Source: an uncultured Clostridia bacterium
GTDB taxonomy: Bacteria > Bacillota > Clostridia > Christensenellales > UBA1242
Direction: 5' to 3'
DNA length: 64,000 nt
Assembly: GCA_934754475.1 (NCBI GenBank)
Contig: CAKVHV010000001.1
Location: forward strand, 251,670-315,669
Shown here: positions 7,891 through 59,261 of the stretch, piece by piece
How positions within the stretch are numbered: the first letter of the stretch is position 1
Layout of the letters: every line of letters starts with the position of its first letter
Position numbers and translations under genes: made by a program
The notes under the pieces: model-generated
Seen by the model: the letters and a program-made list of their open reading frames with translations, nothing else
Databases searched by the model: none
What the model was told of the DNA's origin: nothing

Positions 7891-7901
7891 GGAGAATAAA
7901 A

Positions 7902-8452: not shown

Positions 8453-8462
8453 AGGAGAAATT

Positions 8463-9303: not shown

Positions 9304-9369
9304 GGTATTCTCTGGACTTTAATAGTTGTTTGCGGCAGTATGTGTATGAATAATATAAAGGAGCTTAAT

Positions 9370-11160
9370 ATGGAGAATTTAGAGACTGAAACTAAGAAAC
9401 CTAGAATGTTAATTCTGCTAAGAAATTCGACCAAGAAACAGGCTGAAAAGATTGTAAAGGAAGATGGTAGAATCGAATATGATATTCCATTACAAAGAAG
9501 CATTTTGAGACCTTGGGGCGAACGATTAGGATATGAGGTTCTAAAAGAAGAACTTGTCGAAGGTGGTGTATCAGGTTATAAAATCTCAGCCGAAAATAGA
9601 GATGAGATTGTAAGACTAAAAGCAATGGCTGATAGACACGAGTTCGAAGCTTTGGGAATCTATATGTCAGATAGACTAGGAAGAATTGCAGATGAAACAC
9701 CATTGATAGTATCGTTCCTAAATGCTAGGGGCATAAAAGTATTATCATACACAGAAGGCGAGATATCATCAAAAACACATAACGATAAATTGATGACATA
9801 CCTTAGATATTGGCAAGCAGAAGGCGAAAGCCTTAAAACATCAATAAGAATTAAAGATGCTAACGAAAAGTGCGTAGAGCAAGGAAAATGGAGAGGTGGA
9901 ACACCACCATATGGTTATAGGTCAGTAAGTAATGGAACATTAAACTTCAAAGGCAGACCGATATTCGATGTTGAAATAGATCCAGAGACTTCGCAAGTAG
10001 TTAAAAGAATATTCCAACTATACCTTGATCATTACAGCACGAAGTCAATAGCAAGAATTCTAAATGATGAAAATATCCCAACTAGAAGAGGCACTTTGTG
10101 GGCAAACAACACAGTTTCAAAAATACTTAACAATAAGTTATATACAGGCATTTATGAACTTGGTAAAGCAAGTGGAACAGTAAGAGTGATATCGCCAGTA
10201 ATGGAAAATTTAAAGTTTATTGAAGATGACACCTTTAACCAAGTTCAAGCTATGCTTAAAGAAAACAAACTAATAAAAGACGGAAAGAGACCTACGGTAA
10301 GAGGTTCATTATTACTAACAGGTTTGCTATATTGCGAATGTGGACTAAAATGCACAGGACACACCCAAGTGTATAAAACGACAAGAGTAGATGGTTCAGA
10401 ATATATCCACGAGTCCAGGTTCTATCGCTGTGGCGCACATAGATTGCCTAAAAAAGGACAATGCAATAAAAAACCATTCAATGCTGATAAACTAGAAAAG
10501 ATTGTCATAGATGATGCTAAGAAATTCTTACTAGAAACTGACATTGATAAACTAATTGAAAATCAAGAAGATAAAATCAAAACACAAGAAAAAGCACTGA
10601 TAGAACAAGGCAAAAAGATTGCACGAGACATGACACAAAAAGAAAAAGAAGTGTCAAAACTAAAAGAAGAAGTCTATAAGGTGCTTATAGGACAAAGCCA
10701 ATTCTCAGAGAAATTATTAAACGAAATTATAGAGACAAAGGAAAAGGAACTAGTTGACCTAAAAGAAAGACATAGTGAAACGGAATCAAGAATACAAGAC
10801 CTTAAGGTGGTACTAGAACAACAGAGAGTGATAAGTGGAGACTTGAAAGACTGGGGAAAGAGATTTGACTTGCAAGATATGAAAGAGAAAAAGGCTATGT
10901 TAATAGATTTAATCAATAAAATAACCATATACGATGAAAAAATTGAAGTACGATATAACATAAAGTTTGACAATTTTGAAAAAAATCATTATACTACTAC
11001 AGATGAATATTTGCATGGAGATAACTTGTCCGTGGAGTTATGTCCAACGAATATACAACAAGGCGTTTCTTTATGCCTACCATTTGCACAAAGGGTAACG
11101 CAAGCGAAGATGTTGGAATGGCGGATAGTAATGCTTTGCTTCTTGCAATTTCGGCACTGA
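9370..11160 (+). CDS. large serine recombinase (prophage integrase)
   Basis: N-terminal resolvase-type motif (LILLRNSTKKQ, equivalent to YxRVSTxxQ). Recombinase-domain pattern GKWRGGTPPYGYR, Cys cluster CECGLKC...CGAH...C, long C-terminal coiled coil. Start chosen at the ATG with the AAGGAG RBS. The ORF finds no stop until it is inside rarA-derived DNA. Confidence 0.85.
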   Translation: MENLETETKKPRMLILLRNSTKKQAEKIVKEDGRIEYDIPLQRSILRPWGERLGYEVLKEELVEGGVSGYKISAENRDEIVRLKAMADRHEFEALGIYMSDRLGRIADETPLIVSFLNARGIKVLSYTEGEISSKTHNDKLMTYLRYWQAEGESLKTSIRIKDANEKCVEQGKWRGGTPPYGYRSVSNGTLNFKGRPIFDVEIDPETSQVVKRIFQLYLDHYSTKSIARILNDENIPTRRGTLWANNTVSKILNNKLYTGIYELGKASGTVRVISPVMENLKFIEDDTFNQVQAMLKENKLIKDGKRPTVRGSLLLTGLLYCECGLKCTGHTQVYKTTRVDGSEYIHESRFYRCGAHRLPKKGQCNKKPFNADKLEKIVIDDAKKFLLETDIDKLIENQEDKIKTQEKALIEQGKKIARDMTQKEKEVSKLKEEVYKVLIGQSQFSEKLLNEIIETKEKELVDLKERHSETESRIQDLKVVLEQQRVISGDLKDWGKRFDLQDMKEKKAMLIDLINKITIYDEKIEVRYNIKFDNFEKNHYTTTDEYLHGDNLSVELCPTNIQQGVSLCLPFAQRVTQAKMLEWRIVMLCFLQFRH

Positions 11161-24675: not shown

Positions 24676-25918
24676 AGTTGTCATATTAACTTTGGGTTGC
24701 AAACAGAACAAGTACGAAAGTGATTGCATGGCTAATCTACTAAAAGATAATGGCTACGAAGTTACAGAGAATTTGGAGTTTGCAGACATTTATATAATTA
24801 ATACTTGTGCAGTTACAAGCGAAGCGGAAAAAAAGAGTAGACAATATATTTCCAAATGTCTCAAATTAAATGGTGATGCCAAAATTGTAATTTGTGGCTG
24901 TGCTAGTGAAAAAAATTCAAATCAATTTGATACCAAATCCAACGTATTTTCAATAATTGGAAACGAAGGCAAAGAAAAAATACTTGAATATATAAACAAT
25001 TCTATCAAGGAAAAAAATGAACTTTCAAAAGTTTACATTAGTCCACAAAACCCACAAAAAACCAGCACTAGAGAACATATCAAAATCCAAGACGGATGTA
25101 ATAACTTTTGTTCATATTGCATTATTCCTTATCTTCGTGGAAGGTCAAGGAGTAGGGATTTGCAAAGCATAGTTGAAGAAGCAAAGACTCTCTCAACTAG
25201 GTCAAAAGAAATTGTACTTACGGGAATTGACATAAGTAGTTTTCAAATAGACGGAAAACCCGCACTACCAAAACTACTAGACAAACTAAAAGATATTCCA
25301 AGTACAATAAGACTTGGCTCTCTGGAAGTCGGAGTTATAACCGAAGAACTTATGCAAGTCTTGTCAAATATGCCAAATTTTGCACCGCATTTCCATTTGT
25401 CTTTGCAGAGCGGTGACGACGAAATTCTCAAAAAAATGAATAGACATTATTCGTCTCAAGAATTTTTTGAAAAAGTTTGCTTAATTCGTAAGTATTTTCC
25501 ACTTGCAAATCTGACAACTGACGTAATAGTTGGCTTTGCAGGTGAGACAGAAAAACAATTTGAAAACACCAAAGAGTTTATTAAAAAAGTTGGTTTTTCG
25601 TTTGTGCATATTTTCCCTTATTCCAAGAGAGAAGGGACAAGAGCATATAATATGGAAGACTTGCCAATGAAAATCAAAAAAGAACGCGTGGATATTTTGG
25701 AAAAAGTCAATTTGGAACTACGACAAAAATATCTCAGTCAGTTTGAAAATAAACTCGGCACTATGCTCGTTGAAGAAAAGAAAGAGTTTTTCGAAGGATT
25801 TAGTCCTGAGTATATTAGATGCTATTTGGACTCAGACAAAGTCGAGCCGGGTGAAAAATATAAAATTAAATTTTTGAAACCATACAAAGATGGAATGAAA
25901 GTTGAACTTTGTAAGTAA
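24668..25918 (+). CDS. mtaB: tRNA methylthiotransferase MtaB (MiaB-like radical SAM)
   Basis: N-terminal LGCKQNKYES, radical SAM CNNFCSYCIIPYLRG, C-terminal TRAM-like region. Confidence 0.85.
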   Translation: MNKVVILTLGCKQNKYESDCMANLLKDNGYEVTENLEFADIYIINTCAVTSEAEKKSRQYISKCLKLNGDAKIVICGCASEKNSNQFDTKSNVFSIIGNEGKEKILEYINNSIKEKNELSKVYISPQNPQKTSTREHIKIQDGCNNFCSYCIIPYLRGRSRSRDLQSIVEEAKTLSTRSKEIVLTGIDISSFQIDGKPALPKLLDKLKDIPSTIRLGSLEVGVITEELMQVLSNMPNFAPHFHLSLQSGDDEILKKMNRHYSSQEFFEKVCLIRKYFPLANLTTDVIVGFAGETEKQFENTKEFIKKVGFSFVHIFPYSKREGTRAYNMEDLPMKIKKERVDILEKVNLELRQKYLSQFENKLGTMLVEEKKEFFEGFSPEYIRCYLDSDKVEPGEKYKIKFLKPYKDGMKVELCK

Positions 25919-25943
25919 AATATTTTGATATAGGAGAATAAAT

Positions 25944-26342
25944 ATGTGTATATTTTGCGATATAATTGAAGGAAAAATTCCTAGTTATAAGATTTATGAA
26001 GACGAAAAAACCTATGCTTTCTTGGATATTTCGTGTGATTATTATGGTCACACACTTGTAATTCCAAAGAATCATTGTGAAAACGTGTTAGATGCAAATT
26101 CAGACGACCTTAATGCTGTAATTAATACTATTCAAGTAATTAGTAAACATTACACAAAAGACTTGGGATTTGACGGAGTGAATATCTTGAATGCTTCGGG
26201 TGAAAGTGCAGAGCAGAGTGTTTTCCACTTGCATTTCCATATAATTCCAAGAAAAACGGGCGACGGACTTCATACTTATCCTAGTAGAGAGAAACTTGAT
26301 ATAAACTTGGAAGACGTCAAAAACAGACTTAAAATAGACTAA
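25944..26342 (+). CDS. hit: HIT family nucleotide hydrolase
   Basis: CIFCDII and histidine triad HLHFHIIP. Confidence 0.9.
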   Translation: MCIFCDIIEGKIPSYKIYEDEKTYAFLDISCDYYGHTLVIPKNHCENVLDANSDDLNAVINTIQVISKHYTKDLGFDGVNILNASGESAEQSVFHLHFHIIPRKTGDGLHTYPSREKLDINLEDVKNRLKID

Positions 26343-26419
26343 AATTGTAGTTTTTAATCAAAAAGACTTGACAATTACAAAATTTTATATATAATTAAGT
26401 AGAATAAAAACAAAAGTGG

Positions 26420-26611
26420 GTGAAAAATTTGTCTACAGTTAGAGTTGGCGAAACAGAATCTGTTGAAAGCGCTATCAAAAGATTTAAGAGAAAATGTCAA
26501 AAAGACGGCATTATCGGTGACCTTCGTAAACACGAACAATATGAAAAACCAAGTGTTAAGAAGAAAAAGAAACAAAAAGCCGCAATCAAAAGAAGCAAAA
26601 AAAGAGCGTAA
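26420..26611 (+). CDS. rpsU: 30S ribosomal protein S21
   Basis: VRVGETESVESAIKRFKRKCQKDGI...YEKPSVKKKKKQKAA is typical of S21. Confidence 0.9.
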   Translation: MKNLSTVRVGETESVESAIKRFKRKCQKDGIIGDLRKHEQYEKPSVKKKKKQKAAIKRSKKRA

Positions 26612-26623
26612 ATTAATTTCAAT

Positions 26624-26648
26624 GCACCAAATTATTTGGTGCTTTTTT
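26624..26648 (+). terminator. rho-independent terminator after rpsU
   Basis: GCACCAAATTATTTGGTGC followed by TTTTTT. Confidence 0.75.
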
Positions 26649-26949
26649 GTTGCTTTTTAATTTAAATTTAGAATTAATTTTTCATCATTAATTAAATATT
26701 TTAATAAGCCTTTATTTTTTTAGATTGTATTTATTTGAAATATTGTTTTTGCTTAAAATGATATTTTCAAACTATGTTTTGAGTGATTTTTCTAAATAAA
26801 ACATTATGTTTCAAAATACTACATTAAGTTATAAAATTTTGAATAACTTCTCAAAATGTAACAAAATTAGAATTTTAAATTTATTGTTAATTTTAGCCAT
26901 TTTTGTTAGACTTTAAGTGTTGAATAACAAAAAAGGAAATGAATGAAAA

Positions 26950-27306
26950 ATGAAAAATACTAGGCTCAAATTTTTGGCTAGTCTTGCCAAACAAAGATTA
27001 CTAAACAAGGATTATGATAATACAATAAGTCAAAACAAAAACAAAGCATCAAGTTATTTTTTGGAAAATGCTAGAGCGCTCAAAAGACTCAAAGCCGAAA
27101 CTAATTATGTGACAATCAAAAACGAAGAAGACCTTGAATTTGTTGAACATGTCAAGGAATTAATTAAGCAAGATTGCTATAATCCACTCAAAAAACTCAC
27201 AGATGATACTTATTTTGAGTCTTTGAATGAATTTGAAAAGGAATTTTATATCTTGAATTTAAGTGAAAAGTACACCAAAGTTCGTGAAGAAGTTATGTGT
27301 GGCTAA
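26950..27306 (+). CDS. hypothetical protein
   Basis: 118 aa, GGAAATGAATG RBS region, terminator hairpin downstream (AGATAAGTT-TATT-AACTTATCT followed by T run). No motif recognised. Confidence 0.5.
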   Translation: MKNTRLKFLASLAKQRLLNKDYDNTISQNKNKASSYFLENARALKRLKAETNYVTIKNEEDLEFVEHVKELIKQDCYNPLKKLTDDTYFESLNEFEKEFYILNLSEKYTKVREEVMCG

Positions 27307-27406
27307 AAAATATAGATAAGTTTATTAACTTATCTTTTTTATTGCTTTGAAAAGTCTTTGGGTTGTGCTAAAATATTAAATGAATAATTTACTGGAGACA
27401 AACAAA

Positions 27407-40356: not shown

Positions 40357-41475
40357 ATGAAGAAAAAAGGGAAAATAATTACAGCACTAGCATCAATTGG
40401 CTTGTGTCTTGGCGGAGCGGTTTTGTTATCCGGTTGTGACAAAGGTGGAAATGCTGATGGAAGTAATAACACAACTGATGCTCAAATAAGAGTGGTGTAT
40501 GCCGAAGCAGTTGAGAACGGATACACTGGAACTTACGAAGAATGGCTAGAAAGTATAAAAGGTGCAAAAGGTGACAAGGGTGATACTGGATTAAAGGGCG
40601 ACAAAGGCGATAAGGGAGATAAAGGTGACCCAGGTGCACCGGGAAAGGATGCAACTGTTGCTACATATACAATCACTTTTGATTATGGTACTACAGATTT
40701 TGCAGGTACTCTAGAAATGAGACGTTTATTTACTAATGCATATCTTAGTGGAACAATTAAGTCAAATTCATGGATAAAAAATATGCCAAAACCCAAGGCG
40801 GAATATGGTGACTTTTTTGATGGGTGGTATATTGAAGATACTGATAAAAAAATTGAAGACTATGATTTTATAGGTGGTGATGTCAAATTAGTCGCTAGAT
40901 ATAAGGATATTGGTTGGAGTTTGACTGGACAAACTTATGTTGTTGATGAAAATAGCAAATTGGTTATAATCAATAAATCCGACAGTTCTGACACAATTTC
41001 AAAATATATTAAACGCAGTATAGACAATATAGAAACTAGTTTGATTGAAAGAGTTGTTGTTTTTGATGAAACTGTCAAAGGGATTATGGATTTGGGTTTT
41101 TATAATTGTAAAAATCTTAAATCAGTTGTTTTGCCGGATAGTATTAACTGGATAGGTACTAGTGCTTTTTCAGGGTGTAATTCATTAAATTACATATCAT
41201 CATCTTCAAATCTTGAGAGTATAAAAGATAATGCATTTTCTGGTTGTAGTTCATTAAGAAATATAGCGCTATCTAATAATCTACAAAGAATAGGTGATGC
41301 TGCTTTTTCTGGCTGTGATTTGCTATACTCAGTTAGTTTTGATGGATTACTAAGTGAATGGTTTCAAATTGAAATGGTATCAGCTTCAAGTAATCCGCTA
41401 TATAATGCACCTAGACCAACTCTCAAAGTTAAAGATGAAAATAATGAATGGATAACCGTGGATTTAACGTATTAA
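40357..41475 (+). CDS. surface lipoprotein with a collagen-like Gly-X-Y repeat and BspA-type leucine-rich repeats
   Basis: Signal peptide with lipobox LLSGCD. GAKGDKGDTGLKGDKGDKGDKGDPGAPGKD triplet repeat. YTITFDYG...FDGWY repeat. LRRs of the type IGTSAFSGCNSLNYI / IKDNAFSGCSSLRNI / IGDAAFSGCDLL. Confidence 0.8.
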   Translation: MKKKGKIITALASIGLCLGGAVLLSGCDKGGNADGSNNTTDAQIRVVYAEAVENGYTGTYEEWLESIKGAKGDKGDTGLKGDKGDKGDKGDPGAPGKDATVATYTITFDYGTTDFAGTLEMRRLFTNAYLSGTIKSNSWIKNMPKPKAEYGDFFDGWYIEDTDKKIEDYDFIGGDVKLVARYKDIGWSLTGQTYVVDENSKLVIINKSDSSDTISKYIKRSIDNIETSLIERVVVFDETVKGIMDLGFYNCKNLKSVVLPDSINWIGTSAFSGCNSLNYISSSSNLESIKDNAFSGCSSLRNIALSNNLQRIGDAAFSGCDLLYSVSFDGLLSEWFQIEMVSASSNPLYNAPRPTLKVKDENNEWITVDLTY

Positions 41476-41855
41476 AAATTGGTGAAAATGGTTATTCAAT
41501 GCCAAAAGCATATACAACTCATGGTTTTTATAGAATTCAGTTTGGCTCAGATATAACTGATATTCCAGATGAAATTTTTGCTAATAATAAAATTTTACAA
41601 ATAGTTGAGCTTACAAATAATATCAAAACAATAGGTGCTAGCGCATTTGGTGGTTGTACAAAAATTGAAGCAATCTATTTGTCAACAAATGAAAGTCAGT
41701 ACGAAGCAGTTCTTAAAAATAATATTGGAAATTACAATAAATGTTTTACTGATAATGTCAAATTTTATTCCGAGACACAGCCAACTGAAAATCTTGAAAA
41801 TTACTGGCACTACGATAGTGATGGTGTTACTCCAGTTATTTGGTCTGCGGAATAA
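41448..41855 (+). CDS. LRR-domain protein without a signal peptide (possibly the frameshifted 3' part of the preceding lipoprotein gene)
   Basis: IPDEIFANNKILQIVELTNNIKTIGASAFGGCTKIEAIYL continues the same LRR type. It overlaps the upstream ORF by 28 nt in another frame and has no RBS or leader of its own. Confidence 0.5.
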   Translation: MDNRGFNVLKIGENGYSMPKAYTTHGFYRIQFGSDITDIPDEIFANNKILQIVELTNNIKTIGASAFGGCTKIEAIYLSTNESQYEAVLKNNIGNYNKCFTDNVKFYSETQPTENLENYWHYDSDGVTPVIWSAE

Positions 41856-41871
41856 AACTAATACAAAAATA

Positions 41872-41907
41872 AAAAAATACAAACGTCAAAAAAGTTTGTA
41901 TTTTTTT
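41872..41907 (+). terminator. rho-independent terminator
   Basis: ATACAAAC-GTCAAAAAA-GTTTGTAT followed by T7. Confidence 0.7.
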
Positions 41908-41977
41908 AAATTTCATCAAAAAATAGGTTGTATTTATCCTATTATTTGTGATATAATAAAAATGTTAGGGGGTATTT

Positions 41978-42217
41978 ATGATTACAGATACAAACAATTT
42001 AATATCTATTACAGAAGCAAATCAAAATTTTTCTAAGGTTGTAAAAAATGTTGAACAAAATGGCGAAGTGATAATACTCAAAAATAACAAGCCACAATAT
42101 GTAGTTTCAAAATTTGAAAACAAAGAAAATACATTAGACGAAAATGCTATGACTTTGGTTGTTGCCAATATGATTTTAACTGAGCATTCAAGGGCTTTTA
42201 AGGAGCTAGGAAAATGA
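41978..42217 (+). CDS. phd: Phd/YefM-family antitoxin
   Basis: 79 aa. ISITEANQNFSKVVKNVEQNGEVIILKNNKPQYVV is typical of the Phd/YefM N-terminus. Overlaps the doc start (ATGA). Confidence 0.8.
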   Translation: MITDTNNLISITEANQNFSKVVKNVEQNGEVIILKNNKPQYVVSKFENKENTLDENAMTLVVANMILTEHSRAFKELGK

Positions 42218-42594
42218 TAAGATTTGACAAAGAAAAAGTTCTTCTTTTGCAACAATTAATCATTAAATCTTCGGGTGGAACTGCGGGTGTTAGAGATTTT
42301 GGGTTGCTGGATTCTGCTATAAATAGTGTTTATCAGACTTTTGATGGTGTAGAACTATATCCTTCCAAAGAAGAAAAGGGTGCAAGACTTGGATTTTGTT
42401 TGGTATCCAATCATGCATTCGTTGATGGAAACAAACGAATTGGTCTGCTTGTTATGTTATCCTTTCTTGCAATAAACGGGATTAAAATGAAATATACTGA
42501 TGATGAATTAATAGAAATAGGGTTGGCTCTTGCAGATGGCAAAATGAAATATGAACATTTGCTTAATTGGATTAAGGAACATAAGATTTATTAA
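42214..42594 (+). CDS. doc: Doc (death-on-curing) Fic-fold toxin
   Basis: Fic/Doc motif HAFVDGNKRIG. 126 aa, coupled to phd. Confidence 0.85.
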   Translation: MIRFDKEKVLLLQQLIIKSSGGTAGVRDFGLLDSAINSVYQTFDGVELYPSKEEKGARLGFCLVSNHAFVDGNKRIGLLVMLSFLAINGIKMKYTDDELIEIGLALADGKMKYEHLLNWIKEHKIY

Positions 42595-42598
42595 TTAT

Positions 42599-42636
42599 AA
42601 ATAGCAACTAAGGTTTAATTTAGTTGCTATTTTATG
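42599..42636. terminator. bidirectional terminator between doc and rpmB
   Basis: AAATAGCAACTAA...TTAGTTGCTATTT hairpin flanked by A and T runs. Confidence 0.65.
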
Positions 42637-42701
42637 ATATTGAATTCAAACAACAAAAAAACTCCTAACAATTTTGTTAGGAGATATTTTTATATGTCAA
42701 A

Positions 42702-42890
42702 TTACTTTTCTTCGTTTTTAAGAGTTTTTAGACATCTTGTGCAAATATATTCGTTTTGGATTTTTCCGTCAACTTCAATAGATTTCTTTTGAAGATTCGC
42801 ACCCCAAGTTCTTCTTGTAGCGATATGAGAGTGACTTACTTGGTTTCCAGCCACTTTTTTCTTACTACATATAAAACATTCTTTTGCCAT
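42702..42890 (-). CDS. rpmB: 50S ribosomal protein L28
   Basis: MAKECFICSKKKVAGNQVSHSHIATRRTWGANLQKK is typical of L28. The track ORF extends upstream of the true ATG. Confidence 0.9.
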   Translation of the reverse strand: MAKECFICSKKKVAGNQVSHSHIATRRTWGANLQKKSIEVDGKIQNEYICTRCLKTLKNEEK

Positions 42891-43235
42891 TGTAAAATTC
42901 ACCCCCAAGGTAATTTTTTGTTTCGTTTGTAATAAACTAATAATATAATGTGTATTTTGTATGCACAAAAAAACACCAAAGTTATTTTAAACACATAGAG
43001 TATATCAAATAAATTCCGTTTAGGCAAGACTTTTTTTAAATTTATTTAAACTATTTTATTTTAAGAGTAAAATTTACAAAATCTCTTGCCAAATCTTATA
43101 TAATATTGTACAATTATATGTGTAGAAATTTCATGGTTTCTAAATTTCAAAGATTTTGTTGATTTTTTAATTTTCAAAATTTTTGGAGATAATCATTTCG
43201 GTGATTGAATAGTAAAGTTAAAAGGAGATAATACT

Positions 43236-43568
43236 ATGGCTGTTAAAACTAGTAATGCGTATGGTAATATAACAATTGATGACGAAGCAATAGCATGTGC
43301 AACTGGACATATTGCTAGAGAGTGCTATGGCGTTGTCGACTTGGTTGGTCAAGGTTCGGTTAAGTCCAAAAACCAACTTACTAAGGGTATCAAAATTATA
43401 ACCGTTGGTAATAGAATTTACATTGATTTGTTCGCTATTTTGAAATATGGTGTTTCAATCGGAACTGTAACAGACAACCTTAAGAGTGCTGTTAAGTACG
43501 GAGTAGAACAATTTACTGGAATGATTGTTGATAGTGTAAATATAAATGTAGTAGGAGTTAGGGTTTAA
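43236..43568 (+). CDS. Asp23/Gls24-family envelope stress protein (YloU-like)
   Basis: 110 aa; IDDEAIACATGHIARECYGVV and the conserved rpmB/asp23/yloV neighbourhood. Confidence 0.8.
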   Translation: MAVKTSNAYGNITIDDEAIACATGHIARECYGVVDLVGQGSVKSKNQLTKGIKIITVGNRIYIDLFAILKYGVSIGTVTDNLKSAVKYGVEQFTGMIVDSVNINVVGVRV

Positions 43569-43606
43569 TTTTTTAGACGTAACTTCTTTAAAGGGATATA
43601 TAAATT

Positions 43607-45253
43607 ATGTTAAAAACAATAAACAGTACAATGTTTCGCAAAATGATTATTGCTAGTGCGAAAATTTTGGATGATAACAAAGGTTTTGTAGACTCATTAA
43701 ACGTATTTCCAGTGCCAGATGGTGATACTGGAACAAACATGAGTTTGACTTATAATAATGTTGTAAAAGAACTTAATAATTGTTTGGAGAATGATTTTGC
43801 TTCAATTTCAAGAGCGGTTGTAACTGGCGCTCTTAGGGGTGCAAGGGGAAACTCTGGTGTTATTCTTTCACAAATTCTCAAAGGAATAAGTAATGTTGTT
43901 GGTACTTGTGAAAAAGAATTAACTACTAAGATGTTTGCAAAGGCTATGGCAGAAGGTTCAAGTATTGCTTACAAAGCAGTTGCTTCTCCTAAGGAAGGAA
44001 CAATTCTTACAGTTATTAGAGTTATGTCTGAGTCTGCTCAACGTAATTGCAAAAAGCATGCTGACTTTGAAGCTTTCTTTGATGCTATTTTAAATGATGG
44101 CGAAGCGATTTTGCAACAAACTCCTGAGATGTTGCCTGTTCTTAAAAAAGCTGGTGTTGTAGATGCTGGTGGTAGGGGACTTATTATTATCTTCAAGGGT
44201 ATGCAAAAAGTTATACTTGGTGAAGAAGACTTTGATATTAACATCGAGCAATTAATTAGCACACAAGCAATGAACAACAATGACTTCTATGTAAATTTGG
44301 ACAACCTTGCGGATATTGAATTTGCTTACTGTACTGAGTTTATGATTACTCATATGAAAAAGAAGACAACCGAAAGCGATATTGAAAAGTTTAGAGAAAA
44401 TCTAAGTAATATCGGCGATTCTGTTGTGTGTTTTGGTGATTTGGAACTTGTTAAGGTTCACGTACATACAAATCAGCCAAACTTGGCTTTGGGTTCAGCT
44501 TTGGAACTTGGAGAAATTATTAACATTAAGATTGAAAACATGGTTGAGCAAAACAGGGAACTTAAACGTGCTCAAACTCAACGTCAACAAAATCTAAAAG
44601 AAATCGGTATTGTAGCAGTAGCACCAGGTCAAGGAATTGCTAACGTATTTGCTGATTTGTTGGTTGATGATATGATTGAAGGTGGACAAACTATGAATCC
44701 GTCCGCCGAAGATATAGCCAAAGCGGTTGATAGAATTCCGGCTAAAAATGTAATAGTTTTGCCTAATAACAAAAATATTATCTTGGCTGCCGAACAAGCA
44801 AAAACTCTTACCAAAAAGATTTTGCATGTAATTCCTACTAAGTCTATTCCAGAAGGTGTGGCTTCAGTTCTTGCATTTAATCCAGATGCAACTATTGACG
44901 AAAACATCGAAGCAATGACAAATGCCAAAGAATCTGTTACAAGTGCATCTGTTACTTATGCTGTAAGAACTACACATGTTAATGGTTTTGACTTGCAAAC
45001 AGGGGACATTATTGGTCTTGATAACAAAGGAATTATTGCCAAAGGTAGTTTGGTTAAAGATACAACTATTCAACTTATTGACAAATTAGTTAGTCCTGAT
45101 AGCGTTAATATTACATTATTCTATGGCAAGGATGTTGCCGAAGAAGATGCTAATGCCTTGGCTGAAGAACTAGAACAACGTTTCCCAGATTGTGATATTA
45201 ATATGATTTCGGGCGAACAACCTGTTTATTATTACATAATTTCAATTGAATAA
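43607..45253 (+). CDS. DAK2-domain protein YloV-like
   Basis: Dak2 motif PVPDGDTGTNM and RGNSGVILSQ; long C-terminal domain as in YloV. Confidence 0.85.
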   Translation: MLKTINSTMFRKMIIASAKILDDNKGFVDSLNVFPVPDGDTGTNMSLTYNNVVKELNNCLENDFASISRAVVTGALRGARGNSGVILSQILKGISNVVGTCEKELTTKMFAKAMAEGSSIAYKAVASPKEGTILTVIRVMSESAQRNCKKHADFEAFFDAILNDGEAILQQTPEMLPVLKKAGVVDAGGRGLIIIFKGMQKVILGEEDFDINIEQLISTQAMNNNDFYVNLDNLADIEFAYCTEFMITHMKKKTTESDIEKFRENLSNIGDSVVCFGDLELVKVHVHTNQPNLALGSALELGEIINIKIENMVEQNRELKRAQTQRQQNLKEIGIVAVAPGQGIANVFADLLVDDMIEGGQTMNPSAEDIAKAVDRIPAKNVIVLPNNKNIILAAEQAKTLTKKILHVIPTKSIPEGVASVLAFNPDATIDENIEAMTNAKESVTSASVTYAVRTTHVNGFDLQTGDIIGLDNKGIIAKGSLVKDTTIQLIDKLVSPDSVNITLFYGKDVAEEDANALAEELEQRFPDCDINMISGEQPVYYYIISIE

Positions 45254-52306: not shown

Positions 52307-52625
52307 TTAACTCGTCAAGTTAGTTTAAACTAACAACAAGGACATTATACAATAAAATTTTTACAAAAGCAAGTGTTTTGTAATATTTTTTTACTTTTAA
52401 TTTTTTGAATAAATTACATATTTTTTCAAAAAGAAAAATATAAAATAATTAATTTTATTATGTAATGTTCAAATTTATGTTATACTAAAACTAAGATAAA
52501 TAATATTTATTTTAATATTCCACAAAATAATTATTAAAATAAAGTTTACTGTCAAAGTAAAAGATGGTGTATACAATACAAATAGTTTTGAATGTAATGG
52601 CGAGTGGATTGCATTCCAAAAAACT

Positions 52626-52949
52626 TTGGTTGTTAATTTCAATAAATTTGATTATTTTGATACAACTATTCAATATAACTCAGATTACAATATTGATTAC
52701 ATCGTAATTCAAAGTGGAGATACACTAAACTCACTAATTTCTTCGTTTTCAAACGATAATGGAACTTGGTATATTTTGGATAGTGATTATGGTGAAGTTG
52801 CTGACAAAGATATTACTATTGCAAATGGGTCAAAATACGTACTTGATTTCAAATCTAACAAACCTTACATTAAGAGCAATTCTTGTGCGATTTATATATT
52901 TGACCACAATCCAACTTCTCAAGATTTTGATTTGATTAGCAGTAATTAA
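52626..52949 (+). CDS. hypothetical protein; the frame is open from 52500 with no canonical start or RBS (possibly 5'-truncated)
   Basis: The track ORF starts at a TTG with no SD. The same frame reads protein-like sequence (KFTVKVKDGVYNTNSFECNGEWIAFQKT) for 40 codons upstream without an ATG/GTG. Confidence 0.35.
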   Translation: MVVNFNKFDYFDTTIQYNSDYNIDYIVIQSGDTLNSLISSFSNDNGTWYILDSDYGEVADKDITIANGSKYVLDFKSNKPYIKSNSCAIYIFDHNPTSQDFDLISSN

Positions 52950-53857: not shown

Positions 53858-53886
53858 TTTACAAATTAATTTAGATTTTGTATAAT
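53858..53886 (+). promoter_or_regulatory. sigma-A type promoter of the rho-like gene
   Basis: TTTACA, 17 nt spacer, TATAAT. Confidence 0.5.
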
Positions 53887-53958
53887 ATGTTTGTACAAAT
53901 TGAAAAACCAAAGAAAAGTTAAGGCAAATTAACAGATTAATTTGTTAAAGGAATTAAT

Positions 53959-55209
53959 ATGATGAGTGAATATAATTTGGAATACATACAAAAATTAAGA
54001 ATTCATGAACTAAGAGATTTTGCTAGACAAGTTGGAATTGCTAGTCCAACAACTATGAAAAAAGAAGATTTAATATCCAAAATCAAGGCAGTAATGAGTT
54101 CTGGAGATTCATCAAAGTTAAGTGAGAAATCGTCAAGTCCGGACTCGTTAGACTTTTTTTCGCTACTTACATCAGCAAATTCAAATTTGCTAAATGAATT
54201 ACTTGTCAAATCTAGTAAAAATGTTGAAAACACTGTTCCTAACGAGAATGGGGATTTATCTAATACTCTTGTAATGAAAAAAAGTATGCTCAATAATATA
54301 AATACACCATATGCTTATTCTTCAAGTAATTTTATTGGGCTTAGTTTTAATGTTGGACAAGGTCCAATCAAATATGACGAAGATATTTCGGAAATGGAAG
54401 GATACTTGGATATTCATCCAAATGGTTATGGAATTGTAAGAGCCAATGGATTTATGCCAAGTTCAAGAGATGCCTATCTTACTATGGCACTTGTTAAAAA
54501 GTACAAACTCAAAACTGGTGATTATGTAACCGGCAAGGTTAAGTATATATTGGAAGGCAAGCCAAGAGTTATGTTTGATATTCTTAGTGTAGATAACAAA
54601 CACGATTCAAGTCTTCAAAGTTTTGATGAAGTTCCTTACAAGAAAGGCAATGATACCTTTTATCTTGACAAATTTGAGATGAAAATAACAATTGGCGAAA
54701 GATTATATGTCAAGAATATGAGTATTGAAGATGCGGTTAAATTAGGTTTTGACTTGGTTGATGAAAACGATGCTTGCGTCAAACTTATCAATCTCAAGGC
54801 TTTGCCAGAAGAGTGTTTTGAATCTCATCAGAAAATGCAAATAATTAATTGTGAATTTAATAAGACTGAGTCGGATGTAGTGGATACAATCGAACTTGTT
54901 TTGGAAAGAGTTAAGAGAGAATTTGAAAGGGGTAAGTCAAATGTAATAATGATTTACAACTTTAGCGAACTTATAAGAATGTATAATGTCGCTATGGAAG
55001 GATGCTATACATTCAACAAATTTAATGCTCAAGCTCTCAACAAACTAAGAAATATTATGTATACCGCCAAATACTCGGATACCAAGCGAAATGTTACAAT
55101 CATGTGTATAGATAGAGTCGGGGTTTCTGAAGATGTTCAAACTATAGTTAACTCCGAATTTATGCCTTTGTTTAATACAAAGTACGACTTTAACGATTTT
55201 AGAAAATAA
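53959..55209 (+). CDS. Rho-like protein: Rho N-terminal and RNA-binding domains retained, ATPase motifs lost, C-terminus truncated
   Basis: Rho_N-like IQKLRIHELRDFARQVGI...KEDLISKI. Cold-shock-like core MEGYLDIHPNGYGIVRANGFMPSSRDAYLTMALVKKYKLKTGDYVTGKV. The C-terminal half is colinear with the Rho ATPase domain (ELVLERVKREFERGKSNVIMIYNFSELIRMYN), but the Walker A/B positions read GERLYVKNMSIEDA and LINLKALPEE. Confidence 0.7.
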   Translation: MMSEYNLEYIQKLRIHELRDFARQVGIASPTTMKKEDLISKIKAVMSSGDSSKLSEKSSSPDSLDFFSLLTSANSNLLNELLVKSSKNVENTVPNENGDLSNTLVMKKSMLNNINTPYAYSSSNFIGLSFNVGQGPIKYDEDISEMEGYLDIHPNGYGIVRANGFMPSSRDAYLTMALVKKYKLKTGDYVTGKVKYILEGKPRVMFDILSVDNKHDSSLQSFDEVPYKKGNDTFYLDKFEMKITIGERLYVKNMSIEDAVKLGFDLVDENDACVKLINLKALPEECFESHQKMQIINCEFNKTESDVVDTIELVLERVKREFERGKSNVIMIYNFSELIRMYNVAMEGCYTFNKFNAQALNKLRNIMYTAKYSDTKRNVTIMCIDRVGVSEDVQTIVNSEFMPLFNTKYDFNDFRK

Positions 55210-55442
55210 TATTTTTTAAATTTAAATAGAAGCAAGAAACTTGGATTTGCTTCTATTTTTTGTTAAATCATGGTTTAAAATTATTAACATATTACTAAGT
55301 TATTTCATATATAACATTAAATACAATTTGATAAATTTGTACATAATAAATCTAAACCAAAAAAATTTAATAAAGTTTTTTACAAGAAATACTTTACTTA
55401 AAACAAATTGTATGATAAAATAACAACGTCTGAATTTGATAT

Positions 55443-55517
55443 GGCACCTTAGCCAAGTGGTAAGGCCCGGGTCTGCAAAACCCTCATGCCTCAGTTCGAA
55501 TCTGAGAGGTGCCTCCA
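55443..55517 (+). tRNA. tRNA-Cys (GCA)
   Basis: Acceptor GGCACCT/AGGTGCC, anticodon loop CTGCAAA, T loop GTTCGAATC, encoded CCA. Confidence 0.9.
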
Positions 55518-55546
55518 ATATTCTATTTCAAATTTGGACAAACTAT

Positions 55547-55633
55547 GCTGGTGTGGCGGAATCGGCAGACGCACAGGACTTAAAATCCTGCGGTGTAACA
55601 ACCGTACCAGTTCAAGTCTGGTCACCAGCACCA
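55547..55633 (+). tRNA. tRNA-Leu (UAA)
   Basis: Acceptor GCTGGTG/CACCAGC, anticodon loop CTTAAAA, long variable arm, T loop GTTCAAGTC, encoded CCA. Confidence 0.9.
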
Positions 55634-55742: not shown

Positions 55743-56912
55743 TCAAATTTCATAGTATAAATTATTGTATAATTTATGTATATTTTCTTTGCTATTTGTT
55801 CTATCTTTTTTGATATAAATATCTTGAGTAATTTGTGTTGTTGAGTGTCCTAACCAACTACTAATTAGTTTAATTGGTGTGCCTAAATACATATGATTAG
55901 TTGCAAATGTGTGTCTTAATGTGTGTATTCCACCTTTTATATTTAAACTTTTTAGTATTTCTTTGAATTGACGATATACTTTTTCTTTGTTGAATTTTTT
56001 TAGAATATTTGAATTGTTTATTATAAAGTTTTTTGCTTCGTTTGATAAATCTATAGTTTTTGTTGGCAATTCATCTTCATGTTGTTTTAAGTTTTTTGCA
56101 ATAAGTATATTGTTTTTTGTATCTATATCCTTTTCTATATCTTTATAATTTAATTCGTCTTTTCTTAGTCCTGTTATTAGATATATCAGTATTGGTACTT
56201 TTATTTCGTGGTCTTTTATGTAATTAAGTATTTTTACTTGTTCATCATATGTGAATGGTGGTCTTATGCTCTTTATTTTCTTTTCTTTTATAAAAGCATT
56301 GAATGGATTGATTTTGATTTTTCCTAATTCTAGTGCTTTCTCTAAGCTTGCCTTGAAATATAATATACATTTTTCTTTTGGTCTTGATTTTGGAATTTTA
56401 TTAAAGTAATTTTGTAATTCTGTAGTATCAAGTTTGTTTAAGAATATATTATGAAAATATTGTAATTTTTTAAATAGTATATTTTTTATTTCTTCTCCAG
56501 TTTGAATTGAAACAAATTTTTCTTTGAAAATTCTAAACCATTCATAAAACCAGTCAATAATTTTAATTTTATTGGTTAGATTTCTTTTTATAATTTCTTT
56601 ATTTGCTTGTTTGATTTTTCTATATTTATTAATTATTTCTTGCTGTGTTTTTCCGTAAATATATATTCGGTTTTTGTTGATAGTTATTGTTTTTTGGTAT
56701 CTACCATCTTTTCTTTTTGTAATTGTCATGTCTTGCTCCTTATTATTTTCTAATAATTGACAAGACATATTTTTTTCTTTTTGATTAAATAATTCTTCTT
56801 CAGCTTCAAATTTGCCAACAAAAAATTGGATTATTTCTAAAGCATTTTTTAGTTCTTGCTCAGCTTGTTTGCTGAGTTTTAAATAGTTTTTTGTAAAGAA
56901 TTGGTTATACAT
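55743..56912 (-). CDS. int: tyrosine recombinase / phage-type integrase
   Basis: Catalytic box GGIHTLRHTFATNHM...LGHSTTQITQDIY. N-terminal arm-binding-like ITKRKDGRYQKTITINKNRIYIYGKTQQE. The true start may be the internal Met (MSCQLL...). Confidence 0.88.
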   Translation of the reverse strand: MYNQFFTKNYLKLSKQAEQELKNALEIIQFFVGKFEAEEELFNQKEKNMSCQLLENNKEQDMTITKRKDGRYQKTITINKNRIYIYGKTQQEIINKYRKIKQANKEIIKRNLTNKIKIIDWFYEWFRIFKEKFVSIQTGEEIKNILFKKLQYFHNIFLNKLDTTELQNYFNKIPKSRPKEKCILYFKASLEKALELGKIKINPFNAFIKEKKIKSIRPPFTYDEQVKILNYIKDHEIKVPILIYLITGLRKDELNYKDIEKDIDTKNNILIAKNLKQHEDELPTKTIDLSNEAKNFIINNSNILKKFNKEKVYRQFKEILKSLNIKGGIHTLRHTFATNHMYLGTPIKLISSWLGHSTTQITQDIYIKKDRTNSKENIHKLYNNLYYEI

Positions 56913-56952: not shown

Positions 56953-57802
56953 TTAAAACCAAGATTCATCATTATTACTTGTCTCTTTATTAATTGTAAT
57001 TAAGGATTTTTGTAAAATATCTTGTATGTGTTTAATGTCTTCTGGATATATGTATAAACATTTTATACCTAAATTTTTGTAAATCTCTTTTTTATGTTCT
57101 GATTTATTAGCATAATCTTCGTTATTTGTTAATCCAAAGTATTCAATATATATATTTTGATTTTTGACATAAAAATCAGCTGTATATTCTTCATCGTTGT
57201 ATATGATTTTTTTTTTCATATTCATGTAAGTAGTTGTTGTTATAAAGCCAATTGTCAATAATCATTTCTCCTTGACTTCTAACATAATGTCCATCATCTG
57301 CTCTAAATTCTGGTAAATATTTTTTTCTGTAATCAAGTTGATTATCTTCATTTGTTATTGATTTTAGTCTATTGTCTGCTTGGCAAAGAGTGAGTATATA
57401 TTTAGTTCCAAAGTTTGTTTCTAGGGTTATTCTATTTAAATCGTTATTTAAATTTAAATTGTTAGTGTCTAAAAATGGAATAAGGATATTTTTTAACTGT
57501 ACTTGGTTTTTGTTCAATATGTAATATTTGTTTAATAAATATGTTGTTTTGTTACTTTTTATTGATTCAACAAAATTTATTTTTTTTGAATAAAATAAAT
57601 CATAAAATTCTACAATTGAATATGTGTTTGTTAAATTATTTTTTATTGTGTTAATTGTAAAATATGTGGTTCTTCCTTTTTTTCGTATACTATCGATATA
57701 TGATAATTCATTATTTAAATATAAATATTGTCCTGTAATTGGCGATAAGAAATCATTTACATATTCTGCTTTGTCATAGTCTGAAACATACACTGAGTTC
57801 AT
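56953..57802 (-). pseudogene. PD-(D/E)XK-like nuclease-domain gene split by a frameshift in an A10 tract
   Basis: Track ORFs 57191..57802 and 56953..57258 overlap at the homopolymer (T10 on plus, 57207-57216). Joined, they read ...GHYVRSQGEMIIDNWLYNNNYLHEYEKK|IIYNDEEYTADFYVKNQNIYIEYFGL..., an E...D...E-x-F/K nuclease-core pattern. Confidence 0.6.
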
Positions 57803-57817
57803 TTAGATAGATTCTCC

Positions 57818-58135
57818 TTATTGCATTTCAACTAAAGTAGATAATCTACCTAGTTCTCGGTTTAGATTATCATTATTTAATTTTTTTAATAGTATTACTG
57901 CTGAATATTGTTTGTCAGTTAGATAACCAATGTCATTTTTTATTTGTCTACCAACTAAGTAATCTAGTGTTACATTATAGAAGTCTGCGAGTTTACACAA
58001 TGTTTCAATTGTTGGTTCTCTTTTTTCTTTCTCATAGTAATTGTAACAAGTAATTGATGTATTTATCAATTTTGAAATATCTTCTTGCGTATTTTTTTTT
58101 GCTAACCTTAATTCTTTTAATCTCATATTTTTCAC
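57818..58135 (-). CDS. XRE-family HTH repressor (cI-like)
   Basis: LKELRLAKKNTQEDISKLINTSITCYNYYEKEKREPTIETLCKLADFYNVTLDYLVG is a typical HTH_3 domain. Divergent from the rightward genes. Confidence 0.85.
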   Translation of the reverse strand: MKNMRLKELRLAKKNTQEDISKLINTSITCYNYYEKEKREPTIETLCKLADFYNVTLDYLVGRQIKNDIGYLTDKQYSAVILLKKLNNDNLNRELGRLSTLVEMQ

Positions 58136-58181
58136 CTTTCTTGTTTTTTACTATTGAAAGTATAACTATTTAATGTATTTT

Positions 58182-58258
58182 TAGCAATATTTTATAAAAA
58201 ATATGAAAATTTTTTATCAAATTGCTAAAAAACGCTTTGATATTTTATCAATTTGCTA
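58182..58258. promoter_or_regulatory. three operator-like repeats in the divergent promoter region
   Basis: TTATCAAATTGCTA (58214-58227) and TTATCAATTTGCTA (58245-58258) are direct repeats. TAGCAATATTTTATAA (58182-58197) is the inverted version. Confidence 0.55.
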
Positions 58259-58303
58259 TATTATATTAATAATAATAAACATTTTGATAAAAGGAACTTA
58301 GTC

Positions 58304-58450
58304 ATGCCAAAACAGCCAATATCTCAAAGACAAATATTTGAAGTAAATATAGATAGTGCTGAGATGAAACGAAGAAGAGAATCTGATGCTCAAGCGTTTG
58401 ATAATATCACAAATAAATTTTTGGAGAGATTCCATGCATCCAGTAATTAA
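58304..58450 (+). CDS. small early protein (48 aa)
   Basis: MPKQPISQRQIFEVNIDSAEMKRRRESDAQAFDNITNKFLERFHASSN. AAAAGGAAC RBS. First rightward gene after the operators (Cro/excisionase position, no motif recognised). Confidence 0.4.
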   Translation: MPKQPISQRQIFEVNIDSAEMKRRRESDAQAFDNITNKFLERFHASSN

Positions 58451-58562
58451 AACATTAGGTTGGATATTTGCCACCGTAGGTGGTTCTTATCTAATCGTAA
58501 CAATAATTAGATTAATAAAATCCAAGAGGAAGAGAATTCATGATGATAAACCTAAGAATTAA
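58434..58562 (+). CDS. 42-aa single-TM peptide
   Basis: MHPVIKTLGWIFATVGGSYLIVTIIRLIKSKRKRIHDDKPKN. GGAGAG RBS. Overlaps both neighbouring ORFs. Below the track cutoff. Confidence 0.35.
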   Translation: MHPVIKTLGWIFATVGGSYLIVTIIRLIKSKRKRIHDDKPKN

Positions 58563-58752
58563 CTTTGGAGATTGCAAAGTAACAAATAACAAAAGATTAC
58601 ATATAAATATGAATTTAAAGTCTCCAGCAAAATATGTTGTAGAAACTAATCTGTATAAATACTATTTTGACGATTACAAGGAATTTGTAAATAAGTTTAT
58701 TGCGCTTACAAAGCTAGGAATAGATTGCACATGCAAAACACTATTTAATTAA
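58540..58752 (+). CDS. hypothetical small protein (70 aa)
   Basis: ORF with an AAGAGGAAGAG RBS-like stretch upstream. No motif recognised. Confidence 0.4.
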   Translation: MMINLRINFGDCKVTNNKRLHINMNLKSPAKYVVETNLYKYYFDDYKEFVNKFIALTKLGIDCTCKTLFN

Positions 58753-58824
58753 AATTTTATCTTGGCATGGGTTAGATACAAAAACTTTTTTGTAATTTCA
58801 TATTATCCTTTGTTTTTACTTATA

Positions 58825-58864
58825 ACAAGTCAGATATTATTCCATGCCATAATATCTAACTTGT
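58825..58864 (+). other. 16-bp stem-loop whose loop is complementary to an upstream heptamer (possible pseudoknot)
   Basis: ACAAGTCAGATATTAT-TCCATGCC-ATAATATCTAACTTGT (15/16 paired). The loop CCATGCC is complementary to GGCATGG at 58764-58770. Confidence 0.45.
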
Positions 58865-58870
58865 TTACAT

Positions 58871-58916
58871 GCTGGCCTATTGTAGTTAAAAGTGAGTTCG
58901 AGTCTCATAGCCAGCC
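58871..58916 (+). ncRNA. tRNA-like minihelix (acceptor stem plus T arm only)
   Basis: GCTGGCC-N14-GTGAG-TTCGAGT-CTCAT-AGCCAGC-C: 6/7 acceptor pairs, canonical T loop, no D or anticodon arm. The acceptor and T loop resemble the nearby tRNA-Leu. Confidence 0.3.
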
Positions 58917-58960
58917 TTTCAAACTTTTTTCCATTTTGGAGTACTTATGTACTCCGTCTA

Positions 58961-59027
58961 TGCGGAACATGGTGATAATTTGTAAAAGTAAACAAATTAT
59001 GTAAGTTCAATTCTTGCTTCCGTTCCA
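58961..59027 (+). ncRNA. non-canonical tRNA-like element ending in CCA
   Basis: TGCGGAA...ATTTGT-AAAAGTAA-ACAAAT...GTAAG-TTCAATT-CTTGC-TTCCGTT-CCA. Has a T arm with TTCAATT loop, a 6-bp acceptor and an 8-nt middle loop. No D arm and no discriminator, so it is not a normal tRNA. Confidence 0.25.
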
Positions 59028-59051
59028 TTATTAAAATATAGGGGGTTAGAT

Positions 59052-59261
59052 ATGTTTAAAACTGGTGGAAATATATTTACTAGAGTAGTTGTTTCGATAT
59101 TTTCGATTTTAATTACTTTGGCATTGCTATTTGTTGTTGCTGTACTTATATATTGTGCTGTCAAAGGTATAACTTTTTCTGTTGGATTTAAAGAAGTACT
59201 CGGGTTTTTAATTCCTAATGCTGTAAATTCAACTAAATCAAAAATAAATGTATGGAGATAA
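59052..59261 (+). CDS. small membrane protein
   Basis: 69 aa, one long TM (VVVSIFSILITLALLFVVAVLIYCAV). GGGGG RBS. Confidence 0.5.
   Translation: MFKTGGNIFTRVVVSIFSILITLALLFVVAVLIYCAVKGITFSVGFKEVLGFLIPNAVNSTKSKINVWR

Follow-up and report, generated by a model that had tools for sequence, protein, structure and literature searches.

The termination factor Rho is among the best-understood molecular motors, and to our knowledge all Rho paralogues known so far keep the motor. Here we describe a Rho derivative from which the motor residues are missing and which is encoded in a 64,000-nucleotide (nt) stretch of DNA of an uncultured Clostridia bacterium (GTDB lineage Bacteria; Bacillota; Clostridia; Christensenellales; UBA1242; NCBI GenBank assembly GCA_934754475.1, contig CAKVHV010000001.1, positions 251,670 to 315,669 of the forward strand). 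This whole stretch is called the window in the following, and all positions refer to it. The coding sequence occupies positions 53959..55209 of the + strand, as listed among the open reading frames (ORFs) and as given in an earlier, model-made reading of the sequence (the original prediction), and specifies a protein of 416 amino acids (aa) that is predicted to be ATPase-dead. We consider it fairly probable that this protein is a Rho-derived pseudo-ATPase which acts as a static regulator bound to RNA, and that its ancestral client was probably the mRNA of a giant gene for a surface protein that lies next to the derivative in relatives.

When compared with canonical Rho (TIGR00767; structures from E. 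coli, T. maritima and M. tuberculosis), the window protein has the same domain order (Rho_N, OB, RecA-type), the same fold, the R66/D78 cytosine pocket, several scaffold residues and the N-terminal signature of clostridial Rho. In contrast to canonical Rho, it is without the motor residues and without about 70 C-terminal residues, and it scores far below the TIGR00767 cutoff. The α subunits of F1-ATPase offer a parallel, as there a RecA-type fold was kept as a structural or regulatory module after catalysis had been lost; however, α subunits still bind nucleotide, within an obligate hetero-hexamer, whereas in the window protein the P-loop itself is deleted. A Rho_N-type bundle is also found outside working Rho in plant RHON1 and in cyanobacterial DUF4912 proteins, which have neither the OB nor the RecA-type domain of Rho. 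A functional analogy is possible with two groups of factors that modulate Rho-dependent termination: the protein inhibitors of Rho (Psu, Rof/YaeO and Hfq), and cis-encoded processivity factors for long operons, some of which are encoded beside the long genes on which they act (RfaH; for it and the Rho regulators see review PMC12360218). LoaP and UpxY are also cis-encoded processivity factors. Unlike the window protein, none of these factors is derived from Rho.

According to Moreira et al. (2024; PMC11347177), proteins that have only an N-terminal domain and one for RNA binding form a bulk class termed "Rho-like", which was set aside as non-functional, and the paralogues analyzed there keep the catalytic residues. 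Like members of that class (e.g. from Conexibacter and Baekduia), the window protein shows only the two N-terminal domains in Pfam and falls under the operational definition given there. Whereas the class is thus defined by what hidden Markov models (HMMs) miss, the remainder of the window family is a conserved and selected degenerate RecA domain. The short form designated Group B, Type 4 or paralog_Rho2 is likewise a rho paralogue that lost part of the ancestral architecture, but it is without the N-terminal domain and keeps the catalytic and bicyclomycin-pocket residues, which is the opposite of what is found in the window protein (49.7 bits against NF041509, the paralog_Rho2 model, with a cutoff of 628). 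In NCBI, members of the window family are named "Rho termination factor N-terminal domain-containing protein" or "hypothetical protein", and neither full-text searches nor a 2025 review yielded a study on the function or structure of an ATPase-dead Rho that retains a RecA scaffold. The claim in the original prediction that such a protein had not been described therefore holds for functional and structural accounts, but it is too strong in view of the "Rho-like" bin and the existing NCBI names.

Domain searches placed the Rho_N helix bundle at aa 1-46 (53959..54096; like all protein features given here, on the + strand), where the invariant motif LRIHELRD...SPTTMKK is found and where Pfam Rho_N (PF07498) matched aa 11-44 with an E value of 9e-8 and 32.3 bits (cutoff 24.9). 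Columns L13-R19, P30, T31 and K35 of this bundle are invariant in the family alignment, and no non-synonymous difference from locus L010 occurs in it. The OB or cold-shock-type primary RNA-binding domain follows at aa 143-212 (54385..54594), with a match of Pfam Rho_RNA_bind (PF07497) to aa 146-198 (E value 4e-15; 55.7 bits, cutoff 27). Both RNA-binding domains, described as conserved in the original prediction, thus lie above the Pfam thresholds. They are separated by a linker or insertion of about 96 residues (aa 47-142; 54097..54384), most of which is Ser/Asn-rich and modelled with low confidence. The Ser/Asn-rich insertion of about 100 residues that had been predicted is therefore present, but it also holds a family-invariant motif, DFFxLLTSxNSxxLNxLL, with conserved D65, F66, L69 and L70. 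In the window protein this conserved helix motif reads DFFSLLTSANSNLLNELL (aa 65-82; 54151-54204, from the family alignment). In the AlphaFold2 (AF2) model, the linker is largely disordered; its predicted local distance difference test (pLDDT) values are below 50 at aa 50-62, 88-109 and 127-141, and helices are formed at aa 66-71 and 76-87.

No Pfam match to ATP-synt_ab was obtained in the 416-aa protein, and the scores of 90.4 bits against the Rho equivalog TIGR00767 and of 83.6 bits against NF006886 (Rho) lie below the respective cutoffs of 509.45 and 315. Homology to Rho in the C-terminal part was detected in several other ways. With phmmer against Rho proteins of the PDB, aa 272-406 paired with residues 201-340 of E. 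coli Rho; the family profile aligned to T. maritima Rho in a single colinear stretch (144-400 to 59-340); and hhalign against nine canonical clostridial Rho proteins gave a probability of 99.9 and an E value of 4.4e-33 over 397 columns. The AF2 model has a mean pLDDT of 79.6, with values mostly above 90 in aa 246-416, and when it was compared with the PDB by Foldseek, all of the top 50 matches were Rho (about 295 columns; root-mean-square deviation 3.4-4 Å). The colinearity with the RecA domain of Rho that had been noted by eye is borne out by all four comparisons. The 416-aa protein is a true Rho homologue along its whole length, and according to the model the RecA-type fold is retained in its C-terminal domain, a degenerate and C-terminally truncated RecA-type domain that was delimited by hhalign, Foldseek and pLDDT to aa 246-416 (54694..55206).

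The states of functional residues were counted in 30 diverse family members after alignment of E. coli Rho to the family HMM. In the E. coli sequence used, the known functional residues fall at their established positions, and its segments agree with the PDB alignment. At the P-loop site (aa 246-258; 54694..54732, by alignment to Rho), GERLYVKNMSIED stands where Rho has GQRGLIVAPPKAGKT, a replacement that had been predicted and that the profile alignment confirmed, and three residues are deleted. G171 and R173 of this region are kept, whereas the Walker A motif of Rho (PPKAGKT, with K181, K184 and T185) is lost, its residues being exchanged in the window protein (G183 to M, K184 to S, T185 to I) and throughout the family (G183 to M or L, K184 to S, D or N, T185 to I or L). 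The pattern [AG]xxxxGK[ST] is absent from the entire window protein, in accordance with the original prediction, which had reported no GxxxxGK[ST] anywhere in it, and it is found at the P-loop site of none of the family members. An intact P-loop or Walker B motif that is merely offset from the by-eye alignment, which the original prediction had named as a finding that would speak against it, was not revealed by HMM or profile alignment.

At the site of the motif LLIDERPEE the window protein has INLKALPEE, within a remnant KLINLKALPEE (aa 275-285; 54781..54813, by alignment to Rho) in which P213 and E214 are kept and D210, E211 and R212 are changed to K, A and L, respectively. Across the family D210 is K or R, E211 is A in 26 of 30 members, and R212 is R, L or K. 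The original prediction was right about this replacement but had taken the motif for Walker B; LLIDERPEE is the catalytic-Glu/Arg-valve motif, and the real Walker B lies elsewhere and is lost as well. The true Walker B strand, VIILLD265 in E. coli, corresponds to VIMIY333 in the window protein and forms, together with the next helix, the remnant NVIMIYNFSELIRMYN (aa 328-343; 54940..54987, by alignment to Rho); the Walker B Asp (D265) is Tyr in 28 and Asn in 2 of the 30 members. R269 is changed to E or D in 29 of 30, and R272 and N275 are kept. The Q-loop is shortened, with K283 replaced by C, F or V and T286 by F or Y, and the R-loop has Asp in place of K326 in 29 of 30 members. The last E. 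coli residue that can be aligned is G337, and the chain stops 13 residues beyond it, at about the level of E. coli residues 340-350 and about 70 aa short of Rho, which agrees with the predicted truncation of the C-terminus; the Arg finger (R366) and the C-terminal subdomain are absent. In contrast to the motor residues, the scaffold residues G171, R173, P213, E214, K251, R252, E255, R272 and N275 are invariant or nearly so. Judged from its sequence, the protein cannot be an ATP-driven translocase, because throughout the family there is no Walker A, no catalytic Glu, no Walker B Asp, no Q- or R-loop contact and no Arg finger, and the predicted incompetence for translocation would thus apply to the family as a whole. 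Measured against everything that Rho is known to require, the sequence excludes binding and hydrolysis of ATP, threading of RNA and activation of an adjacent subunit in trans.

In the primary RNA site, R66 is kept in 29 of 30 members, D78 in all 30 and Y80, as Y or F, in 27, and F62 is changed to Y in all 30 and F64 to I in 29.

A search of 5.8 billion proteins (E <= 1e-60) detected 103 clusters of the Rho-derivative form down to 32% identity. Two outliers apart, one a fragment of 281 aa and the other extended at its N-terminus to 491 aa, the proteins are 386-426 aa long, and query coverage is 94-100% in all clusters other than the fragment. An ATPase domain was detected in none of the 103. 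The window protein is 100% identical to cluster P0001. In the alignment that we call A1, which comprises P-loop-less truncated Rho derivatives of Christensenellales-like Clostridia with the window protein as row 1, the signatures are LRIHELRD, DIHPxGYGIVR, GERxY, KAxPE, YNFSELIR, an EFxPLFN end and a length of 386-426 aa, and all of them are present in the window protein. Carriers belong to 13 GTDB species, all of them uncultured gut and rumen Clostridia that bear the label Clostridiales, Christensenellales or Christensenella sp.

Among these carriers, the metagenome-assembled genome (MAG) UBA11490 has the nearest orthologue, with 94% identity. The ratio of non-synonymous to synonymous substitution rates (dN/dS) calculated against this orthologue amounted to 0.043 for the whole gene, to 0.024 for the OB domain and to 0.040 for the degenerate RecA-like domain, where 49 synonymous and 14 non-synonymous changes were counted. 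Phylogenetic distribution and dN/dS, which had been proposed as checks, hence gave 13 species and a value of 0.04. The reading frame is open over all 416 codons in the window and is also whole in more than 100 clusters, as expected from the intact coding capacity that had been claimed, and the changes are shared between clusters. The gene is therefore maintained, as had been supposed: the Rho derivative is under purifying selection, and pseudogene decay is excluded.

Outside the subclade of the window protein (relatives of at least 60% identity), a convergent giant gene was found 34-200 nt downstream of the derivative in 16 of 16 lineages. These lineages, with at most 69% mutual identity, comprise 12 of the window family, 3 of a more distant family (b) described below and the single lineage L055 (loci L012-L019, L047, L050-L053, L055, L061 and L062). 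The giant proteins (2,470 to about 4,600 aa) are homologous to each other and rich in T, N, Y and S, and they possess an N-terminal signal peptide and a C-terminal transmembrane anchor ending in RKKGKYR or RRHxKFR; Pfam domains were not matched in them. A symmetric arrangement of A-run, hairpin and U-run was found in the five spacers that were folded (z = -3 to -7.7), and in these five the spacer is a predicted bidirectional intrinsic terminator.

On the upstream side of the derivative, the lineages with a giant gene show four or more different contexts. In eight of these lineages (L013-L017, L019, L052 and L062), the next gene upstream, on the same strand and about 100-150 nt away, codes for an RNB exoribonuclease (RNase II/R-like, 618-667 aa) and is a second recurrent neighbour with a role in RNA metabolism. 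Other upstream neighbours are YpeB/SleB sporulation genes, a metallophosphatase and a nitroreductase, and in the subclade of the window protein DUF308. A constant operon partner upstream was considered and rejected, as this neighbour differs between lineages, and because it varies, the giant gene is the conserved partner. Linkage at such divergence argues for a functional link, convergent pairs being weaker evidence than operons.

In the window and in close relatives, the gene order is DUF308 membrane protein, Rho derivative, tRNA-Cys/Leu and then a deaminase, and in the window an integrase island is inserted after tRNA-Leu. The 64-kb window contains no ORF longer than 900 aa, tblastn with the giant proteins gave no match in it, and a metagenome scan with the C-terminus of the giant protein found nothing. 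A 763-aa lipoprotein encoded upstream of DUF308 in close relatives was tried as a shrunken giant protein and dismissed, since it has no homology to the giants. In the window, a 107-aa ORF at 52548-52925 (+) matches only the C-terminal 140 aa of this lipoprotein (32% identity) and is probably a gene remnant.

The window family is one part of a broader radiation of Rho derivatives without a P-loop, which has no name so far. An exhaustive HMMER search over 1.84 billion representatives detected a family (b) of truncated P-loop-less Rho derivatives of 360-410 aa with 25-35% identity, as well as full-length Rho-like proteins with degenerate P-loops. Seven loci were found in a metagenome scan with the family profile, among them L055 (PPCM01000005.1, a 899-kb contig), where positions 7980-9392 encode a full-length Rho-like protein of 470 aa. 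This protein has lost the P-loop (HPEGVNV), has T in place of the Walker B Asp and L in place of the Arg finger, and keeps NERPED and the C-terminal subdomain; by its sequence it resembles a halfway state in the decay of the motor. Two further P-loop-less Rho-derived families, fetched via the shared N-terminal motif (L022-L035), come from Lachnospiraceae, Candidatus Scatosoma and other Clostridia MAGs. The family of about 380 aa keeps an hhhhD-like IIDNL strand, and in the family of about 330 aa only Rho_N and an OB-like domain are recognisable; one of the two can be aligned to the window family from end to end (hhalign probability 99.2), the other over Rho_N and OB only. A giant gene was found beside neither of them. 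Both have a basic GRGRP or YGRP linker as in clostridial Rho, and canonical clostridial Rho shows the N-terminal signature IHELR..AR..GV.SPT..KK common to the family in addition to the basic RGRP linker. The shared signature and linker point to one or more duplications of clostridial rho.

With respect to expression, the Rho derivative is predicted to be its own transcription unit with a conserved promoter and a terminator. A putative sigma-70-type promoter, TTTACA-17-TATAAT, is located at 53858..53886 (+) and was assigned by its match to the consensus in 11 of 12 positions. In an alignment of five species, its -35 box TTTACAAA is unchanged and the A(A/G)AGG core of the Shine-Dalgarno sequence is kept, and the remaining spacer is poorly conserved. 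The consensus promoter claimed in the original prediction was thus recovered, in contrast to the structured leader, which was not: the leader of about 65 nt folds no better than shuffled sequences (z = -0.56; 52 of 200 shuffles equal). A riboswitch or other structured RNA in the leader was rejected on the same grounds and because Rfam matches in the window are limited to tRNAs. The Shine-Dalgarno sequence AAAGGA, read from the sequence, lies at 53947..53952 (+), 6 nt 5' of the ATG. Downstream of the gene, a predicted intrinsic terminator consisting of a 13-bp hairpin followed by a U-run occupies 55224..55262 (+), with a minimum free energy of -14.3 kcal/mol (z = -2.8) that is equalled by 2 of 200 shuffles; it had been overlooked by a simple scan because its loop exceeds 8 nt.

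The window is a stretch of bacterial chromosome with a G+C content of 31.9%, in which a prophage end is followed by gmk, lepA and hrcA-grpE-dnaK-dnaJ, by pcrA, ligA, priA, fmt, rsmB, rsgA, rpe and a fakA-like gene, and by several tRNAs. The prophage end next to gmk (1-11160) encodes a Dit_N distal tail protein (2061-2957), a protein with tail-fibre repeats (5134-6858) and a large serine recombinase (9340-11160). A surface-type protein with collagen-like triple-helix repeats and BspA-type leucine-rich repeats (LRR_5) is encoded at 40357-41475 (+). Three regions of 1.4-2.1 kb (25918-27380, 41475-43607 and 57802-59248) contain no ORF of at least 150 aa and gave no Rfam match at the gathering threshold. 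Right after tRNA-Cys/tRNA-Leu (55443-55633), a tyrosine integrase is encoded at 55743-56912 (-), followed up to about 64000 by ORFs without Pfam match. Relatives carry a block of dCMP/tRNA-deaminase and glycerol kinase at this position, and the window therefore has an integrated element at the tRNA-Leu site.

Whether the protein acts alone, as a decoy of Rho or in mixed rings depends on a coexisting canonical Rho. No canonical rho was detected by tblastn in the 64-kb window, and none turned up in the surroundings of 19 family loci, each covered over about 20 kb. Canonical Rho is present in the order Christensenellales (P0367), and when clusters of canonical Rho were compared with the carrier genomes, no pairing was seen among the matches listed (120 of at least 8000).

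For the static regulator bound to RNA, the following course is the most likely. A clostridial-type rho would have been duplicated, and the copy would have kept the helix bundle, the OB primary RNA site and the RecA scaffold while losing the residues for binding and hydrolysis of ATP, for the grip on RNA in the central channel and for activation of the neighbouring subunit, together with the last 70 or so residues. Single-stranded, cytosine-containing RNA would then most likely be held in the R66/D78-type pocket without translocation; since all motor residues are lost, binding of RNA without movement is probable. Such a static binder might shield RNA from surveillance by Rho or from nucleases, or might mark transcripts in some other way, and the RecA-like folded body may have a role in assembly or in contacts with partners. 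In the wider clade, the ancestral client would probably be the mRNA of the adjacent giant surface-protein gene. Homology, fold, motif losses, purifying selection, the distribution of the family and the linkage in relatives are shown by the data; binding of RNA, lack of ATPase activity and any effect on termination or on the giant transcript are inferred. Three observations weigh against this interpretation. In the primary RNA site, E108 is changed to K in 28 of 30 members and R109 to P in 29 of 30, and Y110 is deleted; the first pyrimidine pocket is thus altered, and specificity or even the ligand may differ from those of Rho. The subclade of the window protein has no giant-gene neighbour, which makes the proposed client indirect for the gene in the window. 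The pairs are convergent and not operonic, so that inherited gene order might in principle account for them. More tentatively, and with considerable doubt, the family might constitute a new class of transcript-specific RNA-binding factors that descend from the terminator and serve as decoys: by occupying C-containing, rut-like sites on very long mRNAs with little protection, they would keep Rho or nucleases from ending expression early, with a giant transcript of 8-14 kb as the ancestral client and with the factor retained in the subclade of the window protein after the genes had separated.

An alternative that we regard as possible though rather unlikely is that the protein poisons or partners canonical Rho as a subunit, entering mixed rings or capping oligomers and thereby tuning termination genome-wide. 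Lacking both P-loop and Arg finger, such a subunit would disable the adjacent catalytic sites. The near-invariance of the RecA scaffold and of the structural residues shared with Rho fits with it, as does the occurrence of canonical Rho in Christensenellales, and hetero-hexamers have been raised for other Rho paralogues by Moreira et al. (PMC11347177); however, the C-terminal subdomain, which contributes to the subunit interface of Rho, is missing, and a 1.7-Mb Christensenellales contig with canonical Rho appears to be without a family member. Somewhat less probable still is that the protein is the sole relic of Rho in genomes that have no Rho, now serving as a general RNA chaperone or as a cold-shock-like binder of single-stranded nucleic acid with no link to termination. 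About 30% of Bacillota are without Rho, some Actinomycetota have only Rho-like sequences with an N-terminal domain and one for RNA binding, and the lack of a canonical rho in the window and in the 20-kb surroundings of the family loci would be in agreement with such a relic; yet a chaperone needs no strongly constrained degenerate RecA domain (dN/dS 0.040), and a fixed place beside one giant gene would be unexpected for it.

Two further explanations are highly improbable. An NTPase that employs a non-canonical site could be sought in the tripeptide G325-K326-S327 of the window protein, but in the alignment these residues fall on E. coli H256-D259, where a turn leads into the Walker B strand, and the protein also has neither the catalytic Glu nor the Walker B Asp nor the Arg finger; as a cryptic P-loop the tripeptide was rejected, as it has no GxxxxGK[ST] context and is not conserved (NKS, SKP, GRP or DKQ in other members). 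The second is an anti-Rho or defence factor of phage or island origin, which is brought to mind by the island with its integrase gene directly following tRNA-Leu, 0.5 kb away, and by a weak Pfam match to the S1/CSD domain of TOTE conflict systems (E value 0.059). The gene, however, lies on the chromosomal side of the tRNA attachment site, and its flanks are syntenic in four other species without the island. A phage or defence origin was dismissed, since no relatives occur among 2.9 million viral contigs, PADLOC gave no match, and PHROG matches are limited to the Rho_N/SAP-like helix. Finally, a decaying pseudogene or a recent loss-of-function allele of rho, suggested at first sight by the loss of every catalytic motif and of the C-terminus, is next to impossible and is refuted by reading frames that are unbroken in over 100 clusters and in 13 species, by identical substitutions fixed across lineages down to 32% identity, by a dN/dS of 0.04 and by the conserved promoter.

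A widespread and strongly selected lineage that combines the RNA-recognition module with the RecA scaffold minus the motor indicates that evolution has turned the terminator into a pseudoenzyme. Should it compete or co-assemble with Rho, the derivative would be a natural, genetically encoded modulator of termination in abundant uncultured Clostridia of gut and rumen and would provide a built-in separation-of-function variant for the role of the primary site of Rho. The near-universal pairing with the giant gene in related lineages offers a concrete, testable client and bears on how very long genes are transcribed to full length where bacteria do not couple transcription to translation. In surveys that score the presence or absence of Rho by domain matches, such proteins deserve a separate category.

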